A stretch of DNA of 25,697 nucleotides from Gammaproteobacteria bacterium (lineage in GTDB: Bacteria > Pseudomonadota > Gammaproteobacteria > Methylococcales > Methylococcaceae): the NCBI GenBank assembly GCA_009922685.1, contig RFVA01000033.1, positions 1 through 25,697 on the forward strand, read 5' to 3'. Under the pieces are notes generated by a model. That model did not search any database and had not been told where the DNA came from. It saw only the letters and a program-made list of their open reading frames with translations. A program made the translations under genes and the position numbers. Positions 1,672 to 24,849 of the stretch are shown in pieces; positions within the stretch are counted from its first letter, which is position 1; each line of letters starts with the position of its first letter.

Positions 1672-1710
1672 TGACGCTTTCGATCTCTTGCCATAAACCT
1701 CAATCCCCAA

Positions 1711-1753: not shown

Positions 1754-1764
1754 GGGGACCGCCA

Positions 1765-6813: not shown

Positions 6814-6826
6814 CTGAATGGATAGC

Positions 6827-8129: not shown

Positions 8130-8231
8130 TAAGTCGGATAATGAGGGGCAATTGTAGCCGTCTCAAGGATTTAAAAACATGGTCGGAGCGACCCCGCATC
8201 CTTCTTTGAGACCCCCAACCAGAGATTTTTT

Positions 8232-9278
8232 ATGCTCAAGATCAAGGCGTATGCCGCACAGAACGCAACATCCCCCCTAGCGCCTTTCCCCATCGTCCGT
8301 CGCCCGCCGGGTCCTAAGGATGTTGAAATCGACATTCATTACTGCGGCGTCTGCCACACCGACATCCATCAGGCTCGCAATGAATGGCATGGCACCACAT
8401 ACCCCTGCGTCCCAGGCCACGAAATCGTCGGTGTCGTGACCTCGGTAGGATCGTCAGTTCGTGGTTTCAAGGTGGGAGACAAAGCGGCCGTTGGCTGCAT
8501 GGTCGGCGCTTGTGGTCATTGCGGGAGCTGCAAGGACGGTGAAGAGCAGTTTTGTGAACAGGGGCCCACCTGGACTTACAACAGCGAAGACAAGATGAAC
8601 GGTGGAACCACCTTCGGCGGTTATTCAGAGCGGATCGTGGTGGATGAGGCCTTTGTTCTAAACCTCCCAGAAACCCTCGATCCTGCAGCCTCTGCCCCTC
8701 TCCTTTGCGCCGGAATCACCACCTACTCACCGCTCCGTTACTGGAACGTCAGATCTGGGCAAACGGTCGGTATCGTCGGACTTGGTGGCTTAGGCCATAT
8801 GGCCATCAAGTTTGCTGCCGCCTTCGGTGCTGATGTGGTCCTGTTCACCACATCCCCTAAAAAAGCCGACGACGCGATCCGTCTTGGCGCCAAGGAGGTG
8901 GTGCTCTCGACCGACGAAAAAGCAATGAGCCAGCATCTCAACCGCTTTGATTTCATTCTAGATACCGTCTCCGCAGCGCATGACCTTAATCCTTATCTCA
9001 ACCTTTTGAAAAGGAATGGCACCATGACACTGGTCGGTGTCCCGCCGGAGCCTTTCTCCATCGCGGCGCCACACCTCATCTTTGGCCGCCATCAACTTGC
9101 AGGATCATTGATCGGCGGTATCAAGGAGACCCAAGAGATGTTGAACTTTTGCGCCGATCACAACATCACCAGCGACATTGAACTGATTTCGATCGCGGAT
9201 ATCAATGAGGCTTATGAACGCATGTTAAGGAGTGATGTGAAGTATCGATTTGTAATCGATTTGGCCACGCTGACCTGA
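8232..9278 (+). CDS. NAD(P)-dependent zinc alcohol dehydrogenase (YahK / cinnamyl-ADH-like)
   Basis: GVCHTDIH...GHEIVG catalytic zinc motif, structural zinc CGHCGSCKDGEEQFC, and Rossmann motif GIVGLGGLGH. Confidence 0.9.
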   Translation: MLKIKAYAAQNATSPLAPFPIVRRPPGPKDVEIDIHYCGVCHTDIHQARNEWHGTTYPCVPGHEIVGVVTSVGSSVRGFKVGDKAAVGCMVGACGHCGSCKDGEEQFCEQGPTWTYNSEDKMNGGTTFGGYSERIVVDEAFVLNLPETLDPAASAPLLCAGITTYSPLRYWNVRSGQTVGIVGLGGLGHMAIKFAAAFGADVVLFTTSPKKADDAIRLGAKEVVLSTDEKAMSQHLNRFDFILDTVSAAHDLNPYLNLLKRNGTMTLVGVPPEPFSIAAPHLIFGRHQLAGSLIGGIKETQEMLNFCADHNITSDIELISIADINEAYERMLRSDVKYRFVIDLATLT

Positions 9279-9288
9279 TCACCGATCC

Positions 9289-11268: not shown

Positions 11269-11422
11269 GGATCCACCTGGGTTGTGTTGGCTCTCGAAGA
11301 GGAGATCCTGGGATTAAGAATAAGATCGCAGGACACCCATCCCCTCGAGGCGATGCACAACGGGGTGCTGACCTCATGACCCCCCTCGAGATAGCCTTCA
11401 TCCTTCGATCTGAAGGGTTCCC

Positions 11423-12406
11423 ATGACCCTCATCCGCTATGAGGGCAAGACGTTTGAGGTGGGTCCTAAGGAGTCCCTTCTCGATAGCCTCAACGCCCAA
11501 GGCGCCGCCATCCCCTCATCCTGCCGAAGTGGCCTCTGTCAGACCTGTCTCATGCAGGCGCGATCGGGTGTCCCACCTGAATCTTCGCAATCAGGTCTTC
11601 AAGAGGCCCTCCGCCTCGAACACTATTTCCTCGCCTGCCTCTGTTATCCAGAAGAAGATCTTGAGGTATCCCTTCAAGGGGGAGCAAGGCCCCTGATTCC
11701 CGCCAGAGTGATTCGGCTCGAACGACTCAGTGAGACCATCAGGCTGGTCGCCTTGAAGCCTGAAGCACCGATGACATTCCGTGCGGGACAGTTTGTCCAT
11801 CTCTTTCAAGAGAAAGAGATCTTTCGAAGTTATTCGATAGCGAGTATCCCTTCGGATGATGAGATTCACCTCCATGTAAAGCTTCAGCCTGATGGCGAGG
11901 TGAGTGGATGGGTCCATGAATCGCTGAAGGTCGATCAGATCATCCACCTCAGTGGCCCCTTGGGGCACTCTTTTTATGTGGGAGGCCAGCCTGAACAACC
12001 CTTACTTCTCATAGGAACAGGCGCCGGCCTCGCCCCCCTCTTCGGCATCCTCCGTGACGCGCTATCACAGGGGCACACAGGCCCCATCAAACTCTTTCAT
12101 GGAAGCCGCCATCCACAAGAGCTATACCTCGGCCCGGAACTCCAGGAGCTATCGATCCACTCCAATCATTTTGAATATAGGGCCTGTGTCTCAGGCGATC
12201 AGGTGGCTCATCCATACGAAAGAGGCCGTGCCAGTGACCTGGCCTTTGAGGAACTGACCGATCTCAGGGGGTGGCGAATCTTTCTCTCAGGTCATCCGGC
12301 GATGGTTAAAGAAGCACAAATGACGGCCTTCCTTGCTGGAGCCTCTTTGCGGGATATCAGTATGGATCCCTTCACCTTCACCCAAGTGGGTTCAGAGGGG
12401 GGTTGA
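11423..12406 (+). CDS. 2Fe-2S ferredoxin domain fused to an FNR-type FAD/NAD(P)H oxidoreductase
   Basis: Plant-type ferredoxin cysteines SCRSGLCQTC...LAC. FAD motif RSYSIAS and NAD motif LLIGTGAGLAPL. Confidence 0.8.
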   Translation: MTLIRYEGKTFEVGPKESLLDSLNAQGAAIPSSCRSGLCQTCLMQARSGVPPESSQSGLQEALRLEHYFLACLCYPEEDLEVSLQGGARPLIPARVIRLERLSETIRLVALKPEAPMTFRAGQFVHLFQEKEIFRSYSIASIPSDDEIHLHVKLQPDGEVSGWVHESLKVDQIIHLSGPLGHSFYVGGQPEQPLLLIGTGAGLAPLFGILRDALSQGHTGPIKLFHGSRHPQELYLGPELQELSIHSNHFEYRACVSGDQVAHPYERGRASDLAFEELTDLRGWRIFLSGHPAMVKEAQMTAFLAGASLRDISMDPFTFTQVGSEGG

Positions 12407-12531
12407 TCCACCCCCCTGAGCGCCTTCATCGCAGCGTGGGGATCTTGAGGATCTCATGACAAACCGTGCTTGGGTCTAGATCTCTTCAGTGTCATCATAT
12501 ATAGACACGGTAAAAAGAGGAGTCAGAACGC

Positions 12532-13332
12532 GTGATGTGGCTAAAAATAGGCTGTGAAATGACCTTCGATGTGGAGGTGCCGACCCCTTTCATTTTTATG
12601 CTGCGGCCGCGTAATGGCTCCCAACAGTGGGTTGCAAGGGAATCCTATACTCTCAATCCCCATGTCCCCGTTTATGAATATACGGATGTTGCTGGCAACC
12701 TTTGCCAGCGCTTGGTGGCCCTACCTGGCGCATTTTCATTAAAAGTCAGTGCTGACATCCTCACCAGCGAAACGATTGACTTTGCCCCTGGGGCCCCTTT
12801 TGAGGCTGTGCCCTATCTGCCGGACGGCGTTTTGACCTACCTCCTGCCTTCACGCTACTGCGAGTCGGATCGCTTCATTGATTTAAGCCAAGAGATCGTC
12901 CTCGGCATCAACCCAGGCTATGACCAAGTAGCCAGATTAACGCAGTGGCTTCGAGAAACGATTCGATTTAACCCCAACTCCCCTCACTTTCAGATGTCGG
13001 CCGTCGAAGTCTTTCAGGCTGGCGAGGGCGTGTGCCGGGAGATTGCGCATCTTGGGATTGCTCTTTGCCGTAGCCTATGTATTCCAGCTCGCATGGTCGT
13101 TGGCTATCTTCATGGCCTTGAGCCCATGGATTTTCACGCTTGGTTTGAAGCTTATGTTGATGGTCGTTGGTATACCTTCGATCCGACCCAACCATCGCCC
13201 AGGGGAGGCCGTGTTGTCGTCGCTTATGGTCACGATGCAGCCGACGTGGCCATCTTTAATCAGTTTGGCCCGCCCCTTTATCCCCGGCAAATGACCGTGT
13301 GGGTCGAACCCTTAGCGAAACCACCAGAATGA
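12532..13332 (+). CDS. transglutaminase-like cysteine protease family protein
   Basis: Core GEGVCREIAHLGIALCRSLCIPARMVVGY...H...D (Cys-His-Asp arrangement). GAGGAG lies 9 nt upstream of the GTG at 12532. Confidence 0.8.
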   Translation: MMWLKIGCEMTFDVEVPTPFIFMLRPRNGSQQWVARESYTLNPHVPVYEYTDVAGNLCQRLVALPGAFSLKVSADILTSETIDFAPGAPFEAVPYLPDGVLTYLLPSRYCESDRFIDLSQEIVLGINPGYDQVARLTQWLRETIRFNPNSPHFQMSAVEVFQAGEGVCREIAHLGIALCRSLCIPARMVVGYLHGLEPMDFHAWFEAYVDGRWYTFDPTQPSPRGGRVVVAYGHDAADVAIFNQFGPPLYPRQMTVWVEPLAKPPE

Positions 13333-13535
13333 CTGAGGGCTTGCAAAAACCGGCGGTGTGGGGGCGACTTTTGCACAGTATCTTTTAAGTGACTGATTTT
13401 TGGTAAAGACTCAACCATAGATCAATGACTTACATATATATCTATATAAATCATCCACTTACAAAACACATCAAATACTGGTCATTCCAACAGAGGTCCC
13501 AGCACACCCCGCTTCCCACAGGACTGCCCACAGAC

Positions 13536-13558
13536 TTATGCACAGAAATTGTGGATAA
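13536..13558. promoter_or_regulatory. two convergent DnaA boxes
   Basis: TTATGCACA (13536-13544) fits TTATNCACA. TGTGGATAA (13550-13558) is the reverse complement of the perfect TTATCCACA. A weaker TTTTGCACA lies at 13369-13377, and an AT tract (ACATATATATCTATATAAAT) lies around 13430-13450. Confidence 0.45.
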
Positions 13559-13686
13559 ATCTAAAACCCCCAATGAGTCCTTACCCTTCGATGAATTCCC
13601 GAGCTTTTTCCTTTGTTGAATCCCCTGGTCAAAGGCGTAGCATCAAACCAAGGCTCCTCGGCCGCTCCAGGGATTGAGAAATGGGT

Positions 13687-13887
13687 TTAAAGGCTTGAGG
13701 CTACTGGGGCAGCGAAATAGGTAAGAAGGTGCCAAGAAAATTGATCAGAGTTTCCAGAATAATCTTGAACATGCCCTGCTCGAGCCGGGACAGATAATGC
13801 CAATCTTTTCTCAGCATTAACAGAAAAAGCGGCCGTAATAAGGCCTAGAGACAATACCGAAGCTCCAAATATACTCAAAGACTTCAT
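13687..13887 (-). CDS. small secreted hypothetical protein (66 aa)
   Basis: AGGAGG lies 5 nt upstream of the ATG at 13887. Signal peptide MKSLSIFGASVLSLGLITAAFSVNA. No known motif. Confidence 0.45.
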   Translation of the reverse strand: MKSLSIFGASVLSLGLITAAFSVNAEKRLALSVPARAGHVQDYSGNSDQFSWHLLTYFAAPVASSL

Positions 13888-14023
13888 AAAACCTCCTGAC
13901 AATGTCACCGTTTATTAAGATTTTAGGGAAGCGCGATTAATGCGGTTATGAATCGGGTTTTAGTAGGATGGCCTGATATTGTCATAAAAATCGACAATAG
14001 GCCAAAAGTCAAGACCTCGATGT

Positions 14024-14054
14024 CGAAAAAAAGGCCGCTCTATCTTACGGCCTT
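14024..14054 (-). terminator. rho-independent terminator
   Basis: On the minus strand, AAGGCCG-taagatagag-CGGCCTT is followed by TTTTTTTC. It lies about 110 nt downstream of the 14167 stop. Confidence 0.6.
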
Positions 14055-14166
14055 GTCATGCAATGTCCTATCGAGCCGATTGGCATCAAGATCCAAATCA
14101 CTAGGTCCTTGACGATGGATGTGGACGAGAGAATGGCATTAGGCAACTTCAGCGCCATTGAGCGGC

Positions 14167-14636
14167 TTAGCTAGATCGTCTGACCTTCAATCTGTGCATC
14201 TTCCATGCACCAGAATTACCATATCCAGCACCGGTGACCGAACTATCTGTCGGAGTTATTATTCCGCCCGTAGGACTTTCGCCAAAAGCGCATGAGCATG
14301 CAGCTAAAGGAACTCCATTTTGTGACTTCCCAGTCTTCGTACACACCATCGACCAACATTGACTAATCGCCTGTGACGATTGTCCTGAAAAGGTGCCCGA
14401 CGTGAGCGTAGTAGGTTGGGGAGCGCATTCTTGTGCTATCGGTGCAGCACTTTCCCAATTGAGTGCCTCCTGAGGATAGGGACTGTTCAGCCCGTAGAGG
14501 CTATAGATATGGCCTTTGGGTGCCCGGCAACTGCTCCCCATTGTGTTTGAATTTAGGGCCGCAATTGAGGGGCCTTTCAGGATGGGACACATCACGATTG
14601 TTTCGGGGAAAAGCACCTAGTTTTATCTATGGTCAT
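14167..14636 (-). pseudogene. degraded Cys-rich protein gene (distant paralogue of 15312..16049?)
   Basis: A strong start (AAGAGGAGAGAAGTC-ATG at 14636) opens a 14-codon frame that stops. The 149-codon ORF continues in another frame. It shares the pattern QCW..VC....CSC with the 245-aa protein and has no signal peptide. Confidence 0.3.
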
Positions 14637-15311
14637 GACTTCTCTCCTCTTAAAAAATAATCTAATTTAGTAACTATTCTCATTTTGTAACATACATCCT
14701 TTTCATAAAGGCAAAAAGACGCCTATTGCCGATAAGACAACAACGACGGGCATTAAATTGTCTCTTGGGTTCAAGCTCATGTTTCTTCTCTTTTGGTAGG
14801 CTTTGAAATTCTAGCTAAGCACTCATTCATCCCTTTACCGGTTAATCCTGTTTTACGGCAAACATGCTGAGAACGCAAAGAACATTTTCTCGTGAGCTTT
14901 AACTCGGAGTGGAAAGCCCCTGCAAGAGGGCCAATCATTGAAGCGGACCTTTGAAAGACCGTACGCAACCGGATGCACCCGTGCTAACAAGCAGGCCGCA
15001 AACTATGAGACGCACTTTTTGAAAAAAACACCGGATCTCTGTGGCCTTTGGCCAGTGCAGTACTCGCTAAAAAGTGGCCGTCTTAATAGTAAGTTCTATG
15101 TGGATGGCTCGGCTGTCAAAATTCCTGACCGCATGATCAAGGGCTTAGTGCGTGACACCTCCTATCTCTGCTTGAAACTTCGCTGATGGTGTCGGGCGGC
15201 TCTAAGACTTGAGCCACATAGTCTGACAGCGGAGTTCTCATCGACCGCAGAAACTTATCTGTTAGGATGAATCACTAACTCCCGATCCGCTCGATCTCAA
15301 TCGCTGTAAAA

Positions 15312-16049
15312 ATGCACACACTAAAAGTAAGGCAAGTTCTCGAATTGATTTTGCTCTTCATTTTTTCGCTCGCAGCTCATGCTGTCGTTAAGTGCCCAAC
15401 AGCGAGCACCACAAATAACGGTTTCGCACTTTGTGCCACAGCGCAGTGCTGGACACTCGACGGCGTCAGCTATTGCAAGTGCAACCTGATGAATGAAGAA
15501 AGCATTTCAGCCCCTTTCAACTACACTGAAGGTGGGACGATGAAGGACGTGTGCGACTTGCTTGTTCAGGGTGTAACCAATGGATTCACTATCAGCACTT
15601 ATGCAACCCCTGTGACGGTATTGAAGAGCTATGATCCAGCGACCGGGGGTCAGGGTCCAGCGCAAGCTTTGTACACATGTAATGAGCCGGGTTATTCACT
15701 CAAGCCGGCTTATTCCGCGCAGTGTGACGGCGGCGTTTGCTTCACGAGCACTACAAACACTGACTTTCCAGGATTGGGGCACATTGGTAGCAGTGAAATT
15801 GTTTGCTCCTGCCCGCCCACACCCAATAAAAGAGCATTTCAGATCTCTGGGCCTTGGAGCTGTGCTCCGGGCGAAGCCAATCGAGGAAACAAGTGCTGCG
15901 ACAAGAAGTTCTACACACAGTTTTGTGGTGTGCGTTCTATCAAAAAGACAGGGACTGTTATGGCGGTGGGCTCCACTGCCGGAGTTCCTGTGATTCTTTC
16001 AACGTTGCTCGATGGTCAGCCTCCATTGCTGAACAGTTGCAAATTTTGA
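15312..16049 (+). CDS. secreted cysteine-rich hypothetical protein (18 Cys in the mature part)
   Basis: Signal peptide MHTLKVRQVLELILLFIFSLAAHA. Internally repeated motif AQC(W/D)..(D)G(V)..C.C. No family recognised. Confidence 0.6.
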   Translation: MHTLKVRQVLELILLFIFSLAAHAVVKCPTASTTNNGFALCATAQCWTLDGVSYCKCNLMNEESISAPFNYTEGGTMKDVCDLLVQGVTNGFTISTYATPVTVLKSYDPATGGQGPAQALYTCNEPGYSLKPAYSAQCDGGVCFTSTTNTDFPGLGHIGSSEIVCSCPPTPNKRAFQISGPWSCAPGEANRGNKCCDKKFYTQFCGVRSIKKTGTVMAVGSTAGVPVILSTLLDGQPPLLNSCKF

Positions 16050-16070
16050 TTTGTTAGCCCAAAGCCTGTT

Positions 16071-16319
16071 TTGGCTGAGCACGCGGGTAAACGAGCGGCG
16101 GTCATTCAATCGTTGATCGAAACCGTCAAGCTGAACGGCGTCGATCCGGCGGCCTGGATGAGGGAGACTCTTCAGGAACTTCCCCTATGGCCGAACAAGA
16201 GAATCGATGAACTTCTGCCCATAGACGGATGGAGCCGGCAGAGGCTTAAGCTTCCCCCATGCTCCCCCAAAAAACTCAAGACAATAAAAAAGGCTAGGCA
16301 TTTCTACCTAACCCTTTGA
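16071..16319 (+). mobile_element. IS66-family transposase C-terminal remnant (truncated)
   Basis: GKRAAVIQSLIETVKLNGVDPAAWMRETLQELPLWPNKRIDELLPIDGW matches the conserved IS66 TnpC C-terminus (..SLIxTxKLNGxDPxAYLxxVLxxLP...RIDELLPWNW). Similarity covers about 16074-16232. There is no N-terminal part and no inverted repeats. Confidence 0.7.
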
Positions 16320-16323
16320 TTTA

Positions 16324-16368
16324 TGGTGGGCCGTGAAAGGCTCGAACTTTCGACCTATGGATTAAGAG
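16324..16368 (-). other. tRNA-Lys(CUU) 3' half only (anticodon loop to CCA); att-type scar
   Basis: The minus strand reads CTCTTAATCCATAGGTCGAAAGTTCGAGCCTTTCACGGCCCACCA. This gives anticodon loop CU-CUU-AA, T-arm GAAAG/TTCGAGC/CTTTC, acceptor 3' strand, discriminator A and CCA. It is close to E. coli tRNA-Lys. The 5' half (GGGCCGT..., ATGGA) is absent. Confidence 0.7.
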
Positions 16369-16557
16369 AAAACTGGCGGATCACTTTCTCTAATATTTTC
16401 AATATATTACATCATATTTTTTTCGGTGTGTAGCAAAGTGTGTAAGCCTCCAACCTACTCAAATCACACGAAAAAGTAAGCGCAGCGTGAAACACCTGAA
16501 ATTAACGCCCCAACAGCACCCCCACTGCCCTGCCGTTGCTTGAAGGCGCGGGACGCT

Positions 16558-16613
16558 ATTACTGAATTTAAGTAACTTGGCGCCGACATCACAACGTCAA
16601 AACTTTTACGTTG
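16558..16613. repeat. hairpin-repeat pair Y1 (16558-16576) + X1 (16592-16613)
   Basis: Y1 is ATTACTgaatttaAGTAAC. X1 is CAACGTCAAAACTTTTACGTTG. Both recur at 17921-17972. Confidence 0.6.
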
Positions 16614-17920: not shown

Positions 17921-17972
17921 AACGTCAAAACTTTTTACGTTGCCCCACATGCCATTACTCAATTTAAGTAAT
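17921..17972. repeat. hairpin-repeat pair X2 (17921-17941) + Y2 (17954-17972)
   Basis: X2 is AACGTCAAAACTTTTTACGTT, which equals X1 apart from one extra T. Y2 is ATTACTcaatttaAGTAAT, matching Y1 at 17/19. The order is mirrored relative to Y1-X1. Confidence 0.6.
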
Positions 17973-18004
17973 AGACCCAGCATTCACTGTAGCTATGCCC
18001 CTCA

Positions 18005-18334
18005 TCACCGCAGGGCTTGGCTGTTTTGAGTAGCGACTTTCTGGCTGATTTGCACGTCACCCGAACCAAAACCGCTGATAGGCTTGGGCTGGACTGGTTG
18101 ATTTTGCTGGGGTTGAGGCTGTTGTACAGGGGTGACTGAGTTTGGTTTAGGCATTGGAACAGGCTGGACAGGAACCGTTGACTGTCTTGTCGCCCGTTTC
18201 GTTTTTGCCTTTCGCTGCTTGGCTGCTTTTGCCTGCTGTTTTGCCTGAATCGCTATCGATGTCCAGACCTTATCGCTAATCAGTTTCCATAAAGCCATCT
18301 GTTCTTCAGCTGACGCAAATTCCACAAGGCGCAT
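18005..18334 (-). CDS. hypothetical protein with a Lys-rich then Pro/Gln-rich low-complexity region
   Basis: 109-codon ORF downstream of the two coupled ORFs. No motif recognised. Confidence 0.45.
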   Translation of the reverse strand: MRLVEFASAEEQMALWKLISDKVWTSIAIQAKQQAKAAKQRKAKTKRATRQSTVPVQPVPMPKPNSVTPVQQPQPQQNQPVQPKPISGFGSGDVQISQKVATQNSQALR

Positions 18335-18432
18335 AAATCAAACATCTCCTGCTCATCCCTGATATTTACGCGCCCTGCCTGATTTTCGATGTTAAACCCT
18401 GAAAACCTGAAGTTAAGGTTTTTGATTCTGGC

Positions 18433-18594
18433 TTACTGCACTGGATATGGCCCGAACACGATTCTGCCTCCGGGCCCCGCCATCGACTGCGCCAGTGCTG
18501 TTGCCTGTATCGCATTGTCGGCATAAACGAAGGTGTGGACCATGCTCCTGCTGCCGTTGTTGATAATTTCAAGTCTCACGGTATATCTGTTCAT
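18433..18594 (-). CDS. 53-aa hypothetical protein (below the ORF-track cutoff)
   Basis: MNRYTVRLEIINNGSRSMVHTFVYADNAIQATALAQSMAGPGGRIVFGPYPVQ. Its ATG overlaps the TGA of the upstream gene (TGATG), which suggests translational coupling. Confidence 0.4.
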   Translation of the reverse strand: MNRYTVRLEIINNGSRSMVHTFVYADNAIQATALAQSMAGPGGRIVFGPYPVQ

Positions 18595-19040
18595 CATGCC
18601 CCCTTCTTGAAGCCAGATCGAAGTGCACCCGATGCCTTTTCGATTTCAGCATCCAGTTCACCTGCCAGTACCGCATTCTTTACCGTGGTCAATGCTTCGA
18701 TCAGGGCATTCAGGTCGGCCACTTCAACAGCGTTCTTGCCCTTGCCGAGCTCAATCACCTTGCTGCCATAGCGCACATGAAAGCAGTAGCCCCCAGTAGC
18801 ACTGATCCAGAACCAAGGCCTTACTCGCTTAAATGTTTCGACTTGTACCTTCTGTCCGGTTGCTGGGTTTGTGGTTGACTTGATGATACGAGGAGTAAAG
18901 TTGGCGCCAGACTGTTTTGCCCTTGCCATGTCGATCTGCTCGTCCAGTTTTGACGCCAGTTTATTGCGCTGTCGCTGGACTCCGTTAACACGTGGCGCTT
19001 GGCTTGCGGTGACCAGTTTCAGTGTGTTCAAAATGCTCAT
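18594..19040 (-). CDS. conserved-looking hypothetical protein (148 aa)
   Basis: I prefer the start MSILNTLKLV at 19040, with GAGGA about 7 nt upstream. The longer ORF-track N-terminus is Cys/Ser-rich junk. The sequence resembles island or plasmid-borne proteins I cannot name with confidence. Confidence 0.6.
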   Translation of the reverse strand: MSILNTLKLVTASQAPRVNGVQRQRNKLASKLDEQIDMARAKQSGANFTPRIIKSTTNPATGQKVQVETFKRVRPWFWISATGGYCFHVRYGSKVIELGKGKNAVEVADLNALIEALTTVKNAVLAGELDAEIEKASGALRSGFKKGA

Positions 19041-20247
19041 TGCTCGTCCTCGGTCTTGTTGAATGAGCCACGAGCGTATTGTCGGATTCGGGATCTGGAC
19101 AACCGAAATCTGCCAGCACCCTGCCCCTAATCCGTCAACAGAACCACATTTGCCAGCACTGATCTGCGGTTCGGCTAAATAAAAATGAAGGCACTTAAAG
19201 GCAACACAACTCCCCACACAGCAAGACGAAAAGCATGATGCGGGCATGTTGGACAGGCACTACAGACTGTTGATGTCCCGGGCTTGCGGGTTTAATCAAG
19301 CGGGTAACAATAAAAGCACTCCACGCAGCAGACGGAGGAGGACACCCAGCGACAACAGCGCACCTGCAGCTTCTACCCCTTCACCGGGATGCTGATCCGA
19401 TATGCCTATATACAACGGATTTAGCTGCAGTAGAAAAACATTAAGGCTAAATGATCGGGACATTGCCATGACCGGCGCAATGCGTTCCCGAGCTTTCCTG
19501 CATGCGACAGCTTGTATGCAAGAAAGTACCGCTGGGTCGGGGTGCAAGCTCCGAGGATGACAGCAACGCGAGGTACCGCCCAACCGCCTCTGGATCGTTG
19601 TAAAGCTGAATGCGAAGGGGACTCACAGAAAGTCTTTTTTTACTTCCTCCGATTGCGGGGAAGTAATGTCTCAAGGATCTACAGAAAGATAAACAAATCC
19701 ATTCAGCATCATTCACCTTCAGACAGCGAATGAATTTTATGAAAAGAACATCATGCTTGAGCTTTGTGAGTGATGAGAGCGACAGCGAGCAGCATCGAAC
19801 AAAGTGAAAAGCTAGCAGAGTTGAGCGCAGCGAGACTCCGCTCATATATGCCCTGTCAGCCTTGAGACAAATGAAATGCTCTGGCACTAGGTTCAGGGTG
19901 TCGAAGGCGGACCGGTCCTTCCTATTCATATCGACTTGGTTTCATGATCGAACGCTGAGCGATTCCTCTTCTTCTCGCATCAACTACTCCTTTATCCCGA
20001 AGGAGATCACGAAGCAAGGGGTACCGAAACAAAATCACCAGCCCGACTTGATAAGTAGCTGACTGCAATTTTATACGCGGGCTATTTTTTCCCAGCAGGA
20101 CCCACTTCGGGCGGCGCAGCACAAGACGCTACAGCAGACGATCTCGATTTCGGGCTGGTGCATGTAGCGAGTCGAGGGAATCCAGACGCTGCTGACGCTG
20201 ACTGAACTTGTTGCTTGAGCAAACTCTTGAACACCCAGATTTCGATG

Positions 20248-20294
20248 CTGCAGGGCTAAATACGATCACTGCAGGAAATGTAAAAACCCTGCAG
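20248..20294. promoter_or_regulatory. three helically phased CTGCAG(G) repeats upstream of the recombinase gene
   Basis: CTGCAG occurs at 20248, 20269 and 20289 (spacing 21 and 20 bp), 120-165 bp upstream of the ATG at 20415. Confidence 0.4.
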
Positions 20295-20414
20295 TGCCAG
20301 CGACTCAGCGTTCAATTTCATGGGGTTACGCAATTCTCATTTTCGGTTGTCCTCACAAGACCGTAGAAATTACGCTGTAAGTCGCTTTTTTATGCGGTAC
20401 AGGAGGATTTAACG

Positions 20415-20987
20415 ATGAAGAAAGCACGGATTTTGAGCAAGCAGGAGTTGAGGCGCGTACTGGACCACATTGCCACCCGCCCCCATTCTGCAAGAAACAG
20501 GGCTTTGATTTGCACGATGCGTTATGCAGGACTCAGGGCATGTGAAGCCGCTTCTCTCAAAATGAAAGATGTGCTCGATGCCCAGGGCGAAATCAAAATC
20601 GAAATCTACCTAACAGCCCAACAAACCAAGGGCAAATCAGGCAGATCCGTGCTCATCAATTCCAAATTATCTAAAGAGCTATCGACTTACTTGCAGGGCA
20701 TGACGATCATCAGTCCCGAGCAAAGCCTGTGGCCCACCCAGAAAAATTCGATTCGCGGTTTCACTGCTAACGGCATTTCTGGATTTTTCTGTCGATTATT
20801 TAAGGAGGTGGGTCTCGAGGGCGTTTCAAGTCACGGTTTCAGGCGCGAATTCATCACCACGCTCGCCAACCACTCCATCGGCATCCACACCATCATGTCA
20901 CTTTCAGGGCATCGTCGGCTTTCATCGGTTCAGGAGTACCTAAGCGTGACTGACGAGCAGAAGCGACGGGCCGTGGAGATGCTTTAA
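20415..20987 (+). CDS. small tyrosine recombinase, catalytic domain only (FimB/FimE-like size and layout)
   Basis: 190 aa. R in AGLRACE, HxxR in SSHGFRREF, GH in LSGHRRL, Y in VQEYL. The N-terminus ILSKQELRRVLDHIATRPHSARNRALICTMRYAGLRACE parallels FimB FLTHSEIESLLKAA..HAARNYCLTLLCFIHGFRASE. AGGAGG lies 8 nt upstream. Confidence 0.85.
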   Translation: MKKARILSKQELRRVLDHIATRPHSARNRALICTMRYAGLRACEAASLKMKDVLDAQGEIKIEIYLTAQQTKGKSGRSVLINSKLSKELSTYLQGMTIISPEQSLWPTQKNSIRGFTANGISGFFCRLFKEVGLEGVSSHGFRREFITTLANHSIGIHTIMSLSGHRRLSSVQEYLSVTDEQKRRAVEML

Positions 20988-21008
20988 AAACCTGAACTTC
21001 AGGAAAGC
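20986..21008 (+). repeat. site A: AAAAACCT-GAACTTC-AGGAAAGC (perfect left arm only)
   Basis: Lies between the convergent stops of the recombinase gene (20987) and the 151-aa gene (21015). Confidence 0.7.
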
Positions 21009-21014
21009 TCAAAT

Positions 21015-21470
21015 TCAAATCAGTTCACACTTCCATTTCGTTTGATCGTTGCCTAACCCATCCCAGTTGGCAGATGCGACCCAGTAATCCGTGGGCAGCA
21101 CATCAATGTAAAACTGAAACCAATCACTATCGCCCCCAGCCAACGAAATGAAATGCGGAAGGCTGATGGAAAAAACCAAACCCTCATTATCACGCTGAAA
21201 GTGGTAGAGGTGCAGAGTGAAGCCCTTAGACTTCAGGTGCTCATTGATCTCTTCATGGAACTTTTGTACATCCGCGTTTTGAAACCAGTACGGGTCCGTA
21301 GGTAAATCTTCTGGACCACTAAAAAACGGAAATTGGGCTGCTGGGCCTTCTTGGGCTTTTTTCCAAAAAATGAAGTCTCTGACTGCCGCACGGATTTCAG
21401 CAATCAGCGTGTCGAACACTTGCCGCTCAATGAACATCGTGGACGCATCATCGTTCAAGTAGCTTGTCAT
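21015..21470 (-). CDS. hypothetical protein (151 aa)
   Basis: Clean ORF with balanced composition. No motif recognised. It is flanked by sites A and B. Confidence 0.6.
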   Translation of the reverse strand: MTSYLNDDASTMFIERQVFDTLIAEIRAAVRDFIFWKKAQEGPAAQFPFFSGPEDLPTDPYWFQNADVQKFHEEINEHLKSKGFTLHLYHFQRDNEGLVFSISLPHFISLAGGDSDWFQFYIDVLPTDYWVASANWDGLGNDQTKWKCELI

Positions 21471-21491
21471 GGCCCGTTATAACTTGAACTT

Positions 21492-21514
21492 GAATTACTG
21501 AACTTCAGGTTTTT
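21492..21514 (+). repeat. site B: GAATTACT-GAACTTC-AGGTTTTT (perfect right arm only)
   Basis: Lies between the stop of the TGT-like gene (21524) and the start of the 151-aa gene (21470). Confidence 0.7.
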
Positions 21515-21523
21515 GATTTTGGA

Positions 21524-22909
21524 TTACGGATTCGGCTCATCGGCATCATCGAATTCCAAATCCATATCCACTTCCGGGTCATTGATAGCAGCCGGTGCAA
21601 CTTGATCGAAAAGTGACTGGTATGCGTCAATCCTGTCCATCGGATTTTGAGCAGCAAACACATCCGCTATGGCATCCAATGTTGCCTCGAATTGTTCAGG
21701 GATATTTCGAATTGGTCCGAAGGCATCCTCATTTGCCCGCCTCATAGCATCAAGATAAACCCATGCATTGTGGTTCATGAGCATCATGTTGCTGAGTGAA
21801 TCTAGCCTGTGCTTTTCAAACTCGTCATCACGACAAACGAGATGATGCATTTCGAGCATTTTGCCCAGTGGCGATGACGGCTCTGGGAAGAGCTGGGGAT
21901 TATTTTGATCTGCATAATTCGAAGTCTGCTTAAGCGTCACCAACTTGATCGCCCAATCTTTTCTGTCATAACCCAGAGCCGGGGACACAGCATATTGATC
22001 GTGTCGTCCCCCACATTTAAACGGGGTTGCGCTATCGTAGGTGATTTGAATTCCCGGGTTTACGCTTCGTAGTTCACGCTGAATTGCTGTCAGGAAAATC
22101 GCCCACTTTGTTTGCGACATGCCCAGCACATGCAAAACATCCTGCCCCAGATCAAATGCATTGTCGTCACGCATCATCACCAAAGTCCGCAGCATGTCAG
22201 CTAAACCACCGAGCCAGCCTGCAGTTCCTGCCAGACTCCAACCGCCATCACGAAACCAGTTCACAGCCTGCCACCAACGCTGCGTATTGCTCCAGTTGCT
22301 ACCTTGAACAACATTGAGCCAGCGAGTGTGCCCCTTCTTTATTTTTTGGATGAGCTGTAAGTTGCGGACTGTCATGTCCGTAAGCTGTTGCTCAGTGCAG
22401 TTGTGGAACGGTGATTTCGCCCCCCTGTTCGTCATCGCCCACAACGGCATATCGAGAGTCATCGCGTAATCTGCGTAACGATCCAGCCACTCGATAATCC
22501 AACGCTTTGCATCGTAGCTACCCTCCCAAGCACTTACAGCAGCGATCCCATGCATGCCCTCGAAGAACTCATAGCTCAAACCGCTCAGCGTACCTTTGCC
22601 GATTTGAAATCCGCCCGAATCACCAAGGAAAAATGATGTGTTAGGCGCCCGGCGGAACAGTGGCCCTCGCGTATCTTTGCCTACCGTGTAGCAACCGATT
22701 GAATGCAGGTAGTAGGGATAGTTCCACAATGCACTTTGCCCGGACCAGAATGCCAAATCCGCTATCGTGAAACCCTGCGGAACAGCACGCCCAACATCAA
22801 GCTGTCTATCAGTAAACGGCGCATAGGTTTCGTTGATTGCCGGGAGATAGATCGAGTAGTCGCCCGGGAAAGTGACATTGAAATCGTTGGTGTAGTTGAG
22901 TTGGATCAT
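21524..22909 (-). CDS. tRNA-guanine transglycosylase superfamily protein, DpdA-like (461 aa from MIQLNY)
   Basis: Ordered TGT motifs, numbered from M at 22909: FLGDSGGFQ (D97), MTLDMP (D153), VVQG (Q202), HVLGMS (~260-265) and TYDSATP (D292). Compare Z. mobilis TGT D102, D156, Q203, LMGVG ~260 and D280. AAGGGG lies 5 nt upstream of the ATG at 22909, which is 5 nt after the upstream stop. Confidence 0.8.
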   Translation of the reverse strand: MIQLNYTNDFNVTFPGDYSIYLPAINETYAPFTDRQLDVGRAVPQGFTIADLAFWSGQSALWNYPYYLHSIGCYTVGKDTRGPLFRRAPNTSFFLGDSGGFQIGKGTLSGLSYEFFEGMHGIAAVSAWEGSYDAKRWIIEWLDRYADYAMTLDMPLWAMTNRGAKSPFHNCTEQQLTDMTVRNLQLIQKIKKGHTRWLNVVQGSNWSNTQRWWQAVNWFRDGGWSLAGTAGWLGGLADMLRTLVMMRDDNAFDLGQDVLHVLGMSQTKWAIFLTAIQRELRSVNPGIQITYDSATPFKCGGRHDQYAVSPALGYDRKDWAIKLVTLKQTSNYADQNNPQLFPEPSSPLGKMLEMHHLVCRDDEFEKHRLDSLSNMMLMNHNAWVYLDAMRRANEDAFGPIRNIPEQFEATLDAIADVFAAQNPMDRIDAYQSLFDQVAPAAINDPEVDMDLEFDDADEPNP

Positions 22910-22914
22910 GCCCC

Positions 22915-24656
22915 TTACCTCAGCTCTTCGATTCTTTTCTCCAACGTCATCCAATCAAGGTCGTTAAGTTCAAAAGCTGGATCATCGTCGGGGTCTTGCG
23001 AAGGAAGCGGATCGATCGTTGTCATGGGGCTGTAGGGCTGGAAGTTCTCAAAGTTACGCTTGCCTTTCTCGTTACACGCAGGAATCCAACAATCGTAATT
23101 CGCTGCAGCAGTTTCAAAACGTAGATACACAGCATGGTTAGATACGGCGATAAACATGTCTCCCTGCAAGTTCAGTTCAGCAATCTGTGCGAGGACAAAG
23201 ATGAAGTCCCGAGGCAGCACATAAATCTCGTGGATGCTGTCGCTGCTATTTCCAGCGTAGGCACCTGTGAGCAGATTGAACTCCTTGTAGCTTTCAAACT
23301 GCGAACCCGAGAACTCCCAGACAACAGTCAACACATTTCCTGAAAACCTTAACTTCAGGATTTTGTGTTCTGGACGCTTATGCTTTGGACCGAAACTTTT
23401 GATCCACGGCTGCAACATACGACCGTTTATTTCGCGTAAACCGCCAAGGTCCACGGTGCCCTGCCATGCTGAGCTAAATGAATTAGGCTTAAAGTCCACT
23501 TGCCACCGAGGGGCACCAAATGACTCGTAGAACGGAATCAAACTGAGTGGTGGATGATTGTAGTTGCTGATGTGAGCTTCAAGATTTGCATCCCAAGATT
23601 CCGTGTACAGATCCAGGGGCAGCTTATTCTTCAGCCTTACGGTGTGAGCTGCGATAAAGCCTTCAGGAACATCTCGGAAAACAGACTTATCGGGTGTCTT
23701 ATAGAGATTGAATCGCCGCGCATTAAGCAGCTTGGTTTCGATCGATTGCCGGGTGCTTGTCTGCAGAAAAACGTCACCATCGTCTCGATTGATGATTTGG
23801 CTTTTGGGTTTAGCATGGATAACAACCGATGACTCCACGCCTGTATGACTCAATAAAAAACTCTGCTGCTCCGGACGATAAATGAGTCGACGATGTGAGG
23901 GTTCCTTAGCGTTTTTCTTGTCCGAAAACTCATCGCTAATCCTGCTCAGCTCCTTAAAGCGGGCTTCATCTTTTGCAATGACATAAGGGATATTGAGGAT
24001 GTGGAGAGGCTCAAGAACAGCACGGACAGTCAATGGCAAAGCATCCAGATTTGTCATGTAGCTTTCCACACTCAAACTACTGATGAGCTTTGGATCTGCG
24101 CTGCTGCCGAGACAAACAACGCCCGATTCATCACGTTTAACAAGGACTACGCTGAAACCGCTTCTATCCAGAGTTGCGGGAAGTGAGCTTGGAATTGACG
24201 GAAAAGCAGCATTGCTGAAAAAGCTTTCGTACCCCTCCTTGAAGAGCGGCCTGAACTCGATGTCGTCAAGCTCAAAAAGCCCAACCTCAACATCATCGTC
24301 ACTATCCAAGTCAGGCAAGCTCCACTTCTCCCTGACACCAGTTTTGCCGAAGTGCTGGACCAAATATCCAGATCGCTGTTCGTGATTTCGTTGCGACTTA
24401 CGAGCTTTAGCACAGGGCGGAAATTGATACTGCGGAGGCTGTAGAAGATGATGTGATTTTGCTCGAAAACCGTGGGCAAATAGCTGGGATCGGACGACAC
24501 CTCCCGCCACCACATGTACACCCGCGCCCACAACTTTGACTCAGCCTCACGAGTCAGTCGTTTGAACGCATTTATCGTCTCGTAGCTGGACTGCAACTTT
24601 TCCAGCGTTTCCGTTTTGGGGGCTTCGGTTTCGGTTTGAGCTTCTGGATTAGACAT
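22915..24656 (-). pseudogene. large hypothetical protein (~580 aa if repaired), reading frame broken near 24340-24370; first gene of the TGT-like module
   Basis: The frame from the ATG at 24656 looks protein-like up to ...SRNEITNSDLDIW and then turns to Ser/Arg junk. The other frame is junk until ...YLVQHFGKTGVREKW and then stays protein-like to the stop at 22915. The C-terminal tail is acidic. Confidence 0.55.
23342..23364 (+). repeat. site C: GAAAACCT-TAACTTC-AGGATTTT (both arms 7/8), inside the large CDS
   Basis: Encodes KILKLRFSG in frame on the minus strand. Confidence 0.55.
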
Positions 24657-24679
24657 AAAAAGCTGAAGTTCAGGTTTTA
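24657..24679 (-). repeat. site D: AAAAAGCT-GAAGTTC-AGGTTTTA (the only copy with an inverted spacer)
   Basis: Starts 1 nt upstream of the ATG at 24656. Positions 24657-24678 are the exact reverse complement of 24828-24849. Confidence 0.75.
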
Positions 24680-24826
24680 CTCAGAACGAAAGCTATCACA
24701 CCCATCCAAGCAGCCGAATCATCATAATTAATGACGAAATCCCGGATAGAAGCAGGGTGCAGCAGTCAGATCGAAACGCAGCTAGGCGACGGTGCCTTTC
24801 TGATTGGCTTTTCGGTTTGGACTTTG

Positions 24827-24849
24827 AAAAACCTGAACTTCAGCTTTTT
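24827..24849 (+). repeat. site E: AAAAACCT-GAACTTC-AGCTTTTT
   Basis: Perfect 22-bp inverted partner of site D, with 148 bp between them. Confidence 0.75.

Follow-up and report, generated by a model that had tools for sequence, protein, structure and literature searches.

The window (the whole stretch of DNA that was analysed, 25,697 nt) contains six type-1 copies of a 23-bp dyad-symmetric repeat and two related type-2 palindromes. All eight sites are located inside a low-GC genomic island, which extends from approximately 16.3 to 24.85 kb, and none is found in the flanking host chromosome, of which the window includes 16 kb of ordinary sequence. The motif is not a genome-wide repeat. The palindromes are members of a widespread, unnamed family of sites which is tied to islands of this kind. 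We tentatively interpret them as core-type sites of the tyrosine recombinase of the island that mark the borders of its modules, a reading to which we give somewhat less than an even chance. Recombination at the sites is unproven.

Five of the type-1 sites (A to E, Table 1) had been listed in a preliminary description of this DNA, and their coordinates are all confirmed. The central base is indeed G in D and C in the other four, the array starts as described at the stop codon of the small tyrosine recombinase gene (A overlaps the TAA at 20985-20987), and four copies, namely A, B, D and E, are placed at gene boundaries. The statement that no other copy exists has to be corrected in view of a sixth copy, F, which has two mismatches to the consensus and thereby fewer than A, B or C; the two type-2 palindromes are also absent from that list. 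Orthologues of F are present in the related loci L010, L105, L113, L114 and L148. The repeat is real and not due to chance: in dinucleotide shuffles 0.00 matches to the 23-mer with up to three mismatches are expected, and the 13-bp core with up to two mismatches was observed seven times against 0.66 expected, a number reached by 0 of 100 shuffles.

Table 1. Coordinates of the palindromic sites and of the genes and fragments of the island within the window.
Feature	Position	Strand	Description
3' tRNA-like fragment	16322..16370	-	T-arm, acceptor stem, CCA; read directly from the sequence
Type-2 palindrome T2a	16555..16579 (approx.)	.	GCTATTACTGAATTTAAGTAAC...; left arm intact, outer right arm degenerate
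Type-2 palindrome T2b	17951..17975 (approx.)	.	GCCATTACTCAATTTAAGTAATAG; between 201-aa sulfotransferase-like and 109-aa genes
Backbone genes	18005..18597	-	109 aa (18005-18334) and 54 aa (18433-18597), separated by F
Type-1 site F	18401..18423	.	GAAAACCTGAAGTTAAGGTTTTT; between 54-aa and 109-aa genes; central base G
DUF6641 protein	18594..19040	-	148 aa; in 57/80 loci
Tyrosine recombinase	20415..20987	+	190 aa, catalytic domain only; Pfam PF00589 (Phage_integrase), E = 2.4e-26
Type-1 site A	20986..21008	.	AAAAACCTGAACTTCAGGAAAGC; overlaps recombinase stop codon
151-aa gene	21015..21470	-	bracketed by A and B
Type-1 site B	21492..21514	.	GAATTACTGAACTTCAGGTTTTT; 461-aa gene stop / 151-aa gene start
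461-aa protein	21524..22909	-	'TGT-like' in the preliminary description; DSGGFQ motif at residue 97
First cargo gene	22915..24656	-	610 aa in intact allele L002
Type-1 site C	23342..23364	.	GAAAACCTTAACTTCAGGATTTT; intragenic
Type-1 site D	24657..24679	.	AAAAAGCTGAAGTTCAGGTTTTA; adjoins ATG (24656) of first cargo gene
D-E spacer	24680..24826	.	147 bp between annotated 23-mers
Type-1 site E	24827..24849	.	AAAAACCTGAACTTCAGCTTTTT; final site ahead of chromosomal flank

None of the copies matches the consensus perfectly. A is good in its left arm only, which is perfect, while its right arm reads GGAAAGC; B is good in its right arm only, which is likewise perfect, and has a type-2-like left arm (GAATTA). 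The outward-facing arms of these two sites are thus the perfect ones and those toward the 151-aa gene are imperfect; a deletion between A and B would yield the only perfect 23-mer. Site A is kept in L010, L165 and L129, including its GGAAAGC arm, and site B in L129 and L126. Three metagenomic contigs terminate within 32 bp of B.

The sites had been described as two inverted 8-bp arms around a 7-bp spacer. The dyad copies are real, but an 11-1-11 palindrome fits better, the 7-bp spacer being itself palindromic. T2a and T2b share the 11-bp centre of type 1 and differ in the arms (type-2 consensus GCTATTA-CTGAA-T-TTCAG-TAATAGC); further type-2 sites are found four times in L011 and twice in L007. 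The part common to all site types in this clade is CTKAA-N-TTMAG. In a dyad of odd length the axis passes through a base pair, which suits the 7-bp overlap of tyrosine recombinases and not the 2-bp crossover of serine recombinases. The odd-centred dyad and the AT-rich centre fit a tyrosine-recombinase core with a 7-bp overlap.

The island is probably tRNA-integrated. One of its ends is probably given by the tRNA-like fragment, although ARAGORN detects no whole tRNA; the same layout of tRNA fragment, about 200 bp and then a palindrome is seen in L046 and L079. Starting from the recombinase, the modules follow in the order A, 151-aa gene, B, 461-aa and 610-aa genes (C inside), D, E and chromosomal flank, and the other side of the backbone carries F, T2b and T2a. 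The flank after E comprises the 3' end of a surface-protein gene and a terminator. Both the recombinase and the palindromes are accompanied most constantly by the DUF6641 protein, whose AF2 model (pLDDT 89.6) has no fold match in PDB or BFVD. Proteins with 59-63% identity to the 151-aa protein are encoded in L010 and L129. For the 461-aa protein no family match was found, and a 39%-identical homologue lies beside the recombinase in L007, L011 and L105. The first cargo gene is frameshifted in the window by a 91-bp deletion at 24349/24350. The intact allele in L002, together with the homologue in L007, which aligns across site C (residues 70-574), places C inside one real protein and not at a gene border.

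The recombinase aligns with the C-terminal domains of XerA, XerC and XerD, and the residues R, K, HxxR, H and Y are present. Among 37 homologues of 38-94% identity R41, H140, R143, H166 and Y175 do not vary at all, and K72 hardly does. To judge from these residues the enzyme looks catalytically competent, and their retention over this range implies that it needs a DNA substrate. An N-terminal core-binding domain is missing, as would suit half-sites that are short. GTDB genomes contain more than 560 relatives. As the preliminary description had suggested to check, palindromes do occur beside homologous recombinases: a palindrome lies at the stop codon in close relatives and in a minority of the 40-50%-identical ones. 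It overlaps or directly follows the recombinase stop in the window, L010, L011, L012, L105, L129, L164 and L165, and among about 75 distant loci roughly 15 have palindromes of the family type (GTC...GAC) 12-62 bp downstream of the recombinase (L013, L024, L041, L058, L063, L078, L084, L086, L097 and L101, among others).

Relatives of the recombinase from freshwater Burkholderiales reside in similar islands, beside DUF6641. About one third to one half of those islands carry odd-centred, lineage-specific palindromes of 15-25 bp of their own at module borders. The arrays comprise TGTCGTGT-W-ACACGACA (five copies in L013), GTCGTTT-W-AAACGAC (seven copies in L041 and at least 14 in L046), AGCGTTACTT-W-AAGTAACGCT (four copies each in L067 and L076) and AGCGTCCCGT-W-ACTGGACGCT (three copies in L030), with the loose common consensus GTYRYTT-W-AARYRAC. 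Copies of one family differ in having either of two complementary bases at the centre, and both orientations are thereby represented.

According to the explanation we favour, the 23-mers would be dyad-symmetric protein-recognition sites. The prime candidate enzyme is the adjacent 190-aa recombinase, of which one monomer would occupy each inverted half-site, with cleavage on either side of the AT-rich centre, approximately 7 bp apart. We infer that the recombinase binds and cuts the sites. Asymmetry is limited to the central base pair, which leaves the sites with hardly any orientation, so that recombination could invert or delete. The sites would punctuate modules in a layout like that of pdif-bounded modules or integron cassettes. 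That they belong to the adjacent recombinase, as proposed earlier, is consistent with the competent-looking enzyme, the palindrome at its stop codon and the border arrays of related islands, although no rearrangement was found.

Several observations count against this explanation. A fully palindromic spacer is atypical of directional tyrosine-recombinase sites. Recombinases 87-98% identical to that of the window adjoin type 1, type 2/3 or type 4 sites, and those of L030 and L033 are 84% identical and have different cores, while a single core type spans recombinases just 45-52% identical. About half of the fully flanked recombinase loci are devoid of such a palindrome. A small tyrosine recombinase is absent from a metagenomic cluster of 21 loci that carries the type-1b site and DUF6641; the site overlaps there the stop codon of a serine recombinase. 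Palindromes also follow large-integrase and many cargo genes, so that adjacency to the small recombinase is not unique.

The suggestion of a shufflon- or cassette-like array is not supported by the comparison of loci. Several metagenomes and MAGs provide about 20 independent contigs of the locus, which are all collinear and contain no inversion, deletion or circular-junction variant at any site. In a cargo module with 29% DNA divergence the gene order and the positions of A, B, C and D are unchanged, which is stability and not shuffling. As no variant was seen in present-day populations, any exchange at the sites would have to be rare and to act on an evolutionary timescale. Like the R64 shufflon (Rci, sfx), the island has multiple short sites in both orientations near a tyrosine recombinase, one of them intragenic; however, only C is intragenic here and no alternative segments exist. 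Rci has 384 aa, and its asymmetric sfx sites, with one conserved arm, lie within alternative C-terminal segments that are seen to invert.

The sites themselves are conserved at the nucleotide level, unlike a terminator or a chance repeat, as indicated by the retention of A to D and by C. In the 610-aa protein, site C corresponds to KILKLRFS at residue 462. It lies within 27 nt that are identical in L129 and L126; it is the only 23/23 window in a gene which is 71% identical overall in these two loci.

In favour of the recombinase reading, sites are placed at junctions. Homology of the window with L105, L148, L113, L010 and L114 extends from 17982, 7 bp to the right of T2b, to inside or at A, and these loci have a type-1 site where the window has T2b. 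Metagenomes show the type-1b site next to alternative left and right flanks, at least three of them, and homology begins exactly at the site; in L119 E and its flank are joined to an inverted, diverged backbone. Against that reading, the same backbone (94-100% identical) is found with cargo 1, with cargo 2 and empty. The exchange points coincide with site edges or fall within the recombinase gene and not at site centres, and the half-site adjoining the recombinase is not conserved. This pattern would be expected for homologous replacement between conserved flanks.

The main rival, which we consider unlikely, is that a dimeric protein encoded by the island binds the palindromes to repress, insulate or roadblock modules, without any recombination. 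The preliminary description had also mentioned operators. Candidates for the binding protein are DUF6641, a small protein that escaped recognition, and the recombinase in the role of a repressor. The dyad symmetry extends over the whole site with the proposed spacer, and the half-site alleles CCTGAA, CCTTAA and GCTGAA are freely mixed, as for independent monomer contacts. D, which adjoins the start of the first cargo gene, and E, 170 bp upstream, resemble a looping pair, C precedes a conserved in-frame internal start (GTG/ATG, minus strand) by 9 nt, and site positions are long stable, with no rearrangement seen. DUF6641 adjoins palindromes in tyrosine- and serine-recombinase islands alike. A precedent is MrpR (YopR) of the Bacillus prophage SPbeta, a protein of tyrosine-recombinase fold in a mobile element with multiple short repeats, which binds about ten SPBRE sites (PMC10516654). 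MrpR has however lost the catalytic residues, which are invariant here, and its 15-bp sites lie in promoter regions, whereas most sites of the islands are at gene 3' ends. Many are placed between convergent gene ends or just past stops, without an obvious operator target. Furthermore, one backbone is combined with modules of three unrelated arm types, so that a single backbone regulator could read only the short common centre. No HTH or RHH protein was detected in backbone or cargo, the DUF6641 model matches no DNA-binding fold, and the central base has no orientation bias relative to transcription, unlike in stoperators.

It is rather improbable, in our estimate, that the palindromes are relics, or module-end sequences for a different enzyme, and move together with the modules. 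Candidates would be terminal inverted repeats that abut each other, att-like sites for the large integrase of the islands or for host Xer, or relics of old captures that now only mark borders; the small recombinase would in that case serve a different purpose, for instance resolution or excision of the island. The site type indeed tracks the module and not the backbone: cargo 1 goes with type 1, and cargo 2 lies between two identical type-3 sites in L105 and L158. Module junctions of L164, L137, L046, L041 and L038 carry pairs of different site types back to back, at distances of 7-45 bp. Palindromes follow large-integrase genes by 11-37 bp in L013, L038, L041, L046, L063, L066 and L067, and in the serine-recombinase cluster DUF6641 and the site are accompanied by an integrase-like gene of 437 aa. 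In L007 a 3'-end remnant of the recombinase is duplicated around an inserted FG-GAP gene, which means that one or more insertions took place without use of the palindrome. On the other hand, the island of the window has no large integrase yet eight well-preserved sites, relics would not stay identical over 27 nt in a gene 31% diverged at the protein level, and the sites have no similarity to dif or pdif (11-6-11 over 28 bp).

RNA-level hairpins (weak bidirectional terminators, REP-like mRNA stabilisers or translational hairpins before starts) are very unlikely: most copies do lie 2-30 bp past a stop codon, the type-1 stem is flanked by A5 and T5 tracts, A reaches the score of a minimal terminator when read on the minus strand, and D, C and B precede start codons by 0, 9 and 21 nt on the transcribed strand, but the folds are weak (-2.1 to -7.6 kcal/mol, half of them no better than shuffled sequence), the arm mismatches G.G, C.C, T.C and A.A are neither wobble nor compensated, types 2, 3, 4 and the GTCGTTT types have no U tract, no Rfam family matches, and ordinary chromosome in the window has no site. 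The sites are not good terminators; true GC-rich, canonical ones stand beside them in L046 and L105, and transcription must read through where downstream genes start 0-21 nt after a site.

Among known systems, the pdif (Xer) modules of Acinetobacter plasmids are similar in that short dyad sites punctuate discrete gene modules, which occur in varied contexts and orientations and whose movement was inferred by comparative genomics and not shown directly. A pdif site has distinct XerC and XerD arms around an even spacer and depends on host XerCD. The sites of the islands are in contrast 15-25 bp long, odd-centred and fully palindromic, and a dedicated 190-aa recombinase is encoded by the island. 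Integrons (IntI, attI, attC), especially sedentary chromosomal ones with uniform attC, likewise have a tyrosine recombinase beside an array and an imperfect palindromic repeat of lineage-specific sequence after most gene 3' ends. However, the recombinase has no IntI-specific extra domain and stays, at 35.6 bits, far below the integron-integrase cutoff of 265, the sites are near-perfect palindromes of 21-25 bp whereas attC sites have 57-141 bp with extrahelical bases, island genes lie in both orientations in a stable cargo order, and no conserved attI-like half-site is found beside the recombinase.

Tycheposons and similar cargo islands that target tRNAs in streamlined planktonic bacteria resemble this type of island: partial tRNAs flank them, their cargo modules can be swapped, and tyrosine and serine recombinases replace each other (bioRxiv 10.1101/2020.12.28.424599). 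The passages of that paper that were considered describe no internal palindromic punctuation sites, and its text contains 'palindrom' zero times and 'inverted repeat' once.

FimB/FimE-type invertases also have about 190-200 aa and consist essentially of the catalytic domain alone, and D and E, exact reverse complements over 22 nt, form a perfect inverted pair directly upstream of an operon, as in invertons (149 nt between the 22-nt arms by repeat finder). The recombinase is nevertheless weak on the model of tyrosine-type DNA invertases (26.5 vs 221 bits), no sigma-70-like promoter is predicted in the D-E spacer, no flipped variant occurs among the contigs of the locus, and the island has eight sites instead of two. 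The D-E spacing is not kept in L129, in which the distance to the next site amounts to 1.9 kb. The cargo-less variant L164 also has E together with the right-hand 22 bp of the D-E spacer.

All five copies of the 23-bp palindrome claimed in the preliminary description were recovered from the window by a pattern search allowing up to three mismatches and by a core search. The same searches revealed a sixth copy, site F, so that the earlier statement that no other copy is present had to be given up. A chance origin of the repeat is excluded by shuffling, which gives an expectation of 0.00 matches for the 23-mer and 0.66 for the core. None of these type-1 copies matches the consensus perfectly; A has a good left arm only, B a good right arm only, and D is the reverse complement of E across 22 nt. 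Two additional palindromes (T2a and T2b) form a second type with the consensus GCTATTACTGAATTTCAGTAATAGC. All eight sites are confined to 16.5-24.85 kb of the window, and no site was found in its first 16 kb (1-16500). REP/BIME palindromes are dispersed in intergenic regions chromosome-wide. The sites have an 11-1-11 layout that can also be read as 8-7-8, with an overlap, GAASTTC, that is palindromic apart from the central base pair. This central base differs between orthologous sites, for example between A of the window and A of the related locus L129. Outside the window the motif was found with DUF6641 islands, many metagenomic matches having a flank too short to judge.

Palindromes, genes and other features of the window and of related loci (L numbers)
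Feature	Position	Strand	Sequence or description
Site F	start 18401		GAAAACCTGAAGTTAAGGTTTTT
Site A	start 20986		AAAAACCTGAACTTCAGGAAAGC
Site B	start 21492		GAATTACTGAACTTCAGGTTTTT
Site C	start 23342		GAAAACCTTAACTTCAGGATTTT
Site D	start 24657		AAAAAGCTGAAGTTCAGGTTTTA
Site E	start 24827		AAAAACCTGAACTTCAGCTTTTT
Type-2 palindromes T2a, T2b	~16555 and ~17951		arms differ; 11-bp centre CTGAA-N-TTCAG common with type 1
IS66 C-terminal remnant	16071-16319		adjoins tRNA-like fragment
tRNA-like 3' fragment	16322-16370	minus	T-arm, acceptor stem, CCA; read from sequence
DUF6641 gene	18594-19040	minus	
Tyrosine recombinase gene	20415-20987	plus	190 aa
461-aa gene	21524-22909	minus	
610-aa gene	22915-24656	minus	
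Block of ~75 bp, window	16476-16553		
Block of ~75 bp, L011	413-461, 1007-1076, 1513-1561		
Recombinase 3'-end remnant, L007	10478-10518, 11958-11998		
Serine recombinase gene, L155	6170-6784	minus	stop codon overlaps type-1b palindrome
Serine recombinase gene, L112	6139-6720	minus	stop codon overlaps type-1b palindrome
Repeat near large-integrase genes	L029 8391, L031 16553, L080 15663, L083 13393		(T)TTTGCAAAGAATTTGCAAAG
Palindrome, L013			TGTCGTGT-W-ACACGACA, 5 copies
Palindrome, L041 and L046			GTCGTTT-W-AAACGAC, 7 copies and 14 or more
Palindrome, L067, L076, L101			AGCGTTACTT-W-AAGTAACGCT, 4, 4 and 2 copies
Palindrome, L030			AGCGTCCCGT-W-ACTGGACGCT, 3 copies
Palindrome, L063, L066, L081, L086, L087, L090			GTCGGTT-N-AACCGAC

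The first part of the window (1-13300) is ordinary chromosome of about 53% GC, which encodes proteases, an ABC transporter and dehydrogenases. Beyond it the GC content is lower, and an IS66 remnant and a tRNA-like fragment, which probably marks the island end, precede the island. The island ends inspected (window, L046/L079) are marked by such partial tRNA-like fragments; the layout in L046 and L079 is as in the window, with a tRNA-Phe-like fragment (a sequence reading), about 200 bp and a palindrome. A 258-bp "cassette" common to these two loci proved to be this tRNA-fragment island end. The left part of the island contains a 201-aa sulfotransferase-like gene, T2b, a 109-aa gene, F, a 54-aa gene and DUF6641, followed by 1.4 kb without convincing ORF, the recombinase gene and A. 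On the minus strand a 151-aa gene comes next, then B, and after it the 461-aa gene and the 610-aa gene, which contains C; D and E, 149 bp apart, close the series. E is followed by a terminator and by the 3'-terminal part of a surface-protein gene. A sulfotransferase cassette common to the window and L011 was discarded, as the L011 gene is not homologous.

A 160-aa ORF rich in Cys, Ser and Leu is annotated within the 1.4-kb gap (19040-20415). In L010 residues 1-99 and 97-160 match separately, at 98-100% identity and with a slight overlap, as a frameshift would cause; at the DNA level the gap is 99-100% identical to L010 and L105. An ncRNA was considered here and rejected, since at depth the conservation does not exceed that of the neighbouring genes and Rfam gave no match.

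The label "TGT-like", which the 461-aa protein had received earlier, rests solely on the motif DSGGFQ at residue 97. No match was found in Pfam, NCBIfam, PADLOC, PHROGs or a PDB sequence search, and with the Pfam, NCBIfam and PDB searches empty membership in the TGT family was rejected. Nor is the cargo taken as a defence system, given zero PADLOC matches. The upstream partner of the 461-aa protein (509-610 aa) is conserved alongside it in four island variants. In the window the 610-aa gene is frameshifted, 91 bp being missing at 24349/24350 in comparison to the intact allele of L002, which is otherwise 99.98% identical to the window. In L001 and L004 the gene enters unrelated sequence 75 bp further on, where the contigs end; this break looks like an IS junction, and the population thus appears to contain two distinct disruptions of the gene. 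Nine nt past C, an in-frame GTG (23334, minus strand; ATG in L129) follows a purine-rich stretch, and a C-terminal portion of about 140 aa might also be made separately.

The recombinase, which comprises a catalytic domain alone, belongs to PF00589 (Phage_integrase; Pfam score 93 bits against a cutoff of 27.1, E 2e-26), and over residues 6-188 it aligns with XerA, XerC-like and XerD structures in their C-terminal domains. The tyrosine-recombinase catalytic set R-K-H-R-H/W-Y is present: R41, H140, R143, H166 and Y175 do not vary among 37 homologues of 38-94% identity, and the conservation of K72 is 90% or more. Because these residues are kept across the homologues, the protein is apparently an active enzyme, unlike the MrpR/SPBRE repressor, which has the recombinase fold, has lost the catalytic residues and has its repeats in promoter regions (PMC10516654). 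In contrast to the SPBRE repeats, most palindromes sit at gene 3' ends or between convergent genes. More than 560 relatives of the recombinase are found in GTDB genomes, chiefly of Burkholderiales (Polynucleobacter, Limnohabitans, Oxalobacteraceae). Its most constant neighbour is DUF6641 (826 homologues at E <= 1e-8), which 57 of 80 loci have close by; most loci also contain an integrase of 350-450 aa. A phage origin was dismissed, as IMG/VR does not contain the motif and no palindrome arrays accompany the viral relatives of the recombinase.

The repeat belongs to a broad family: many related islands bear an odd-centred palindrome of their own which is repeated at the borders of modules. The stop codon of the recombinase gene is often overlapped or trailed by it, and large-integrase genes and many cargo genes are trailed by palindromes as well. 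No palindrome is present at about half of those recombinase loci whose flanks are complete. The site type tracks the recombinase phylogeny loosely, with a mean identity of 68% within and 55% between types and with clear exceptions. Full-text literature searches found no description of this palindrome family or system.

Among close relatives the island backbone is 94-100% identical and occurs in three states. In the window it carries cargo 1; in L105 and L158 it carries another cargo, which lies between two type-3 sites of identical sequence (CAGTTACTTAAAATAAGTAACTC). In the empty state, seen in L164 (positions 1-215), the recombinase stop is followed by a type-4 site (AGCGTCCAGAAAATCGACGCT) and, after 20 bp, by an E-like site and the chromosomal flank. 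The same junction is found in L166 (1-200), where the contig ends short of the flank. Any model of integration can take these cargo-less islands as its natural "empty" reference. Exchange points among the close relatives fall on the edges of sites or within the recombinase gene, not at site centres, and the recombinase-side half-site is not conserved. Further breakpoints lie 85-90 bp off a site, at a terminator, and 52 bp off in L015/L017. Homologous replacement between conserved flanks accounts for the exchange points equally well as site-specific exchange, and mosaic breakpoints were therefore not accepted as proof of the latter.

Several observations point to the sites as junctions. In metagenomes the left and the right flank of the type-1b variant (AAAACCTTAASTTAAGGTTTT) each come in several alternatives, and homology begins exactly at the site. 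In L119, E and the chromosomal flank are joined to an inverted, diverged backbone. Three contig ends are located within 32 bp of B and one inside F. Contig ends of isolates were abandoned as a sign of heterogeneity, since most of these contigs end in IS elements and L030 alone starts inside a palindrome. Mirrored defects (F/C, D/E) were likewise not retained as traces of spacer flipping by repeated inversion, because the half-sites CCTGAA, CCTTAA and GCTGAA mix freely in metagenomes. In L007 an inserted FG-GAP gene has on its far side, just before a type-2 site, a duplicated remnant (80% identical) of the 3' end of the recombinase gene; in this case at least, insertion made use of the gene end and not of the palindrome.

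The shufflon- or cassette-like behaviour suggested in the preliminary description was not seen. About 20 independent contigs of the locus are all collinear, without rearranged junctions at the sites, and A, B, C and D keep their position in a module which is 29% diverged at the DNA level (L129, L126). In these two loci C lies within 27 identical bases and is the sole 23/23 window of the 610-aa gene. It follows that the sites are old and have a function, and that no shuffling of the module is under way. The repeat is a genuine, apparently island-specific and functionally constrained dyad site.

Core sites of the loxP/FRT/dif type consist of two inverted recombinase-binding arms around a 6-8-bp overlap. 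The 8-7-8 reading of the palindrome has this layout, and an odd centre is compatible with a 7-bp overlap. Since a minimal tyrosine recombinase that appears to be active must have sites, and since the palindromes are the sole conspicuous candidates with the right geometry, we tentatively regard recombination sites as the best single explanation. The asymmetric overlap that gives direction to a simple core site is, however, reduced here to the central base. If the sites are substrates of the recombinase, the enzyme, with its 190 aa, and its sites, about 21 bp long, would form a compact new site-specific recombination system. Such a system would influence which flexible genes circulate in abundant freshwater bacteria (Polynucleobacter, Limnohabitans, Oxalobacteraceae), and could supply a candidate minimal recombinase/site pair for genome engineering.

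Integrons have an IntI of about 320 aa with an additional domain, in contrast to the 190 aa found here; the integron integrase model TIGR02249 scores 35.6 bits against a cutoff of 265 and covers residues 5-95 only. Their attC sites measure 57-141 bp, with R''-L''/L'-R' and extrahelical bases, whereas the sites in question are near-perfect palindromes of 21-25 bp. Xer/dif and pdif sites have 28 bp, XerC/XerD arms and a 6-bp spacer, and the window sites differ from these in length, in sequence and in their odd centre. Shufflons contain several inverted sites in alternative, rearranging 3' gene segments; here C alone is intragenic, and the 610-aa protein is collinear with its homologues in L007, L129 and L126, that of L007 aligning through site C (residues 70-574). 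In Fim-type switches a promoter segment bounded by inverted repeats occurs in both orientations. Despite the D/E repeat this is not the case here: a scan for sigma-70 consensus promoters revealed no promoter-like site in the D-E spacer (24680-24826), the segment has the same orientation in L002 and the window, no contig of the locus has it flipped, and the spacing is not conserved, so that an invertible promoter was rejected.

The constrained dyads could also have an operator-like role, which we consider less likely but viable. A DNA-binding protein for this role was not found. The AlphaFold2 model of DUF6641 is confident (pLDDT 89.6) and consists of a long helix, a beta-sheet and two helices, yet has no significant match in PDB or BFVD, and DUF6641 was given up as a recognisable DNA binder. 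Stoperators of Cluster A mycobacteriophages are asymmetric sites oriented with transcription; the palindromes are symmetric, and without stoperator-like polarity their central base is unbiased relative to the adjacent gene. A polarity relative to the upstream gene, which seemed strong by eye in L046 and L067, was gone in an automated count. As operators, the sites would represent the regulatory code of many uncharacterised islands that form a large family, and DUF6641 or the recombinase would gain a regulatory role.

That the sites are used by another enzyme is less likely still. A metagenomic cluster of 21 loci combines the type-1b site with a DUF6641 protein (40% identical) next to a 437-aa integrase-like gene; the small tyrosine recombinase is absent from this cluster, where a serine recombinase gene (193-204 aa; Resolvase + HTH) has the site across its stop codon. 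Adjacency to a recombinase gene alone is thus no evidence that this recombinase uses the site. The serine enzyme is probably not the user, because an odd-centred dyad is unfit for a 2-bp crossover. A likeness of ATCAAAAACC to Hin/Gin hix half-sites was rejected, as it holds solely for F and B with the wrong spacing, and no hix-like flanks are present in the serine-recombinase cluster. The serine recombinase gene of L112 lies in a 2.3-kb segment bordered by two sites whose central bases are opposite and whose inverted flanks are extended (GTGAGATWTCT, 11 nt, site).

Terminators or RNA hairpins are improbable, since intrinsic terminators form stable GC-rich hairpins with a U tract, while the hairpins of the sites are weak (-2.1 to -7.6 kcal/mol) with uncompensated mismatches, A alone passes a permissive terminator scan, true terminators adjoin the sites, and Rfam gave no match.

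Starting from recombination sites as the preferred explanation, a wider but doubtful proposal is an undescribed modular-exchange system of freshwater Burkholderiales islands, probably tRNA-integrated, made of the catalytic-domain-only tyrosine recombinase, DUF6641 and short palindromes. The recombinase, always with DUF6641 as partner, would act on very short, odd-centred and nearly direction-less palindromes between gene modules. Recognition would be limited to a few base pairs or to the geometry of the dyad, and modules with different arms could therefore share one array. If true, this would be a third route to cassette-style gene capture beside integrons and pdif modules. Whether the sites are recombination sites or operators, the palindromes are a practical marker of module limits in islands of the DUF6641/recombinase type.

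Two further elements accompany the palindromes or the integrase genes. A separate repeat is found near large-integrase genes in four loci. A conserved block of about 75 bp directly adjoins the type-2 palindromes and is without Rfam match. It is present three times in L011, upstream of small genes, and forms a tandem site-block-gene array in which one small gene begins with an apparent signal peptide. The block could be a promoter or 5'-UTR element.
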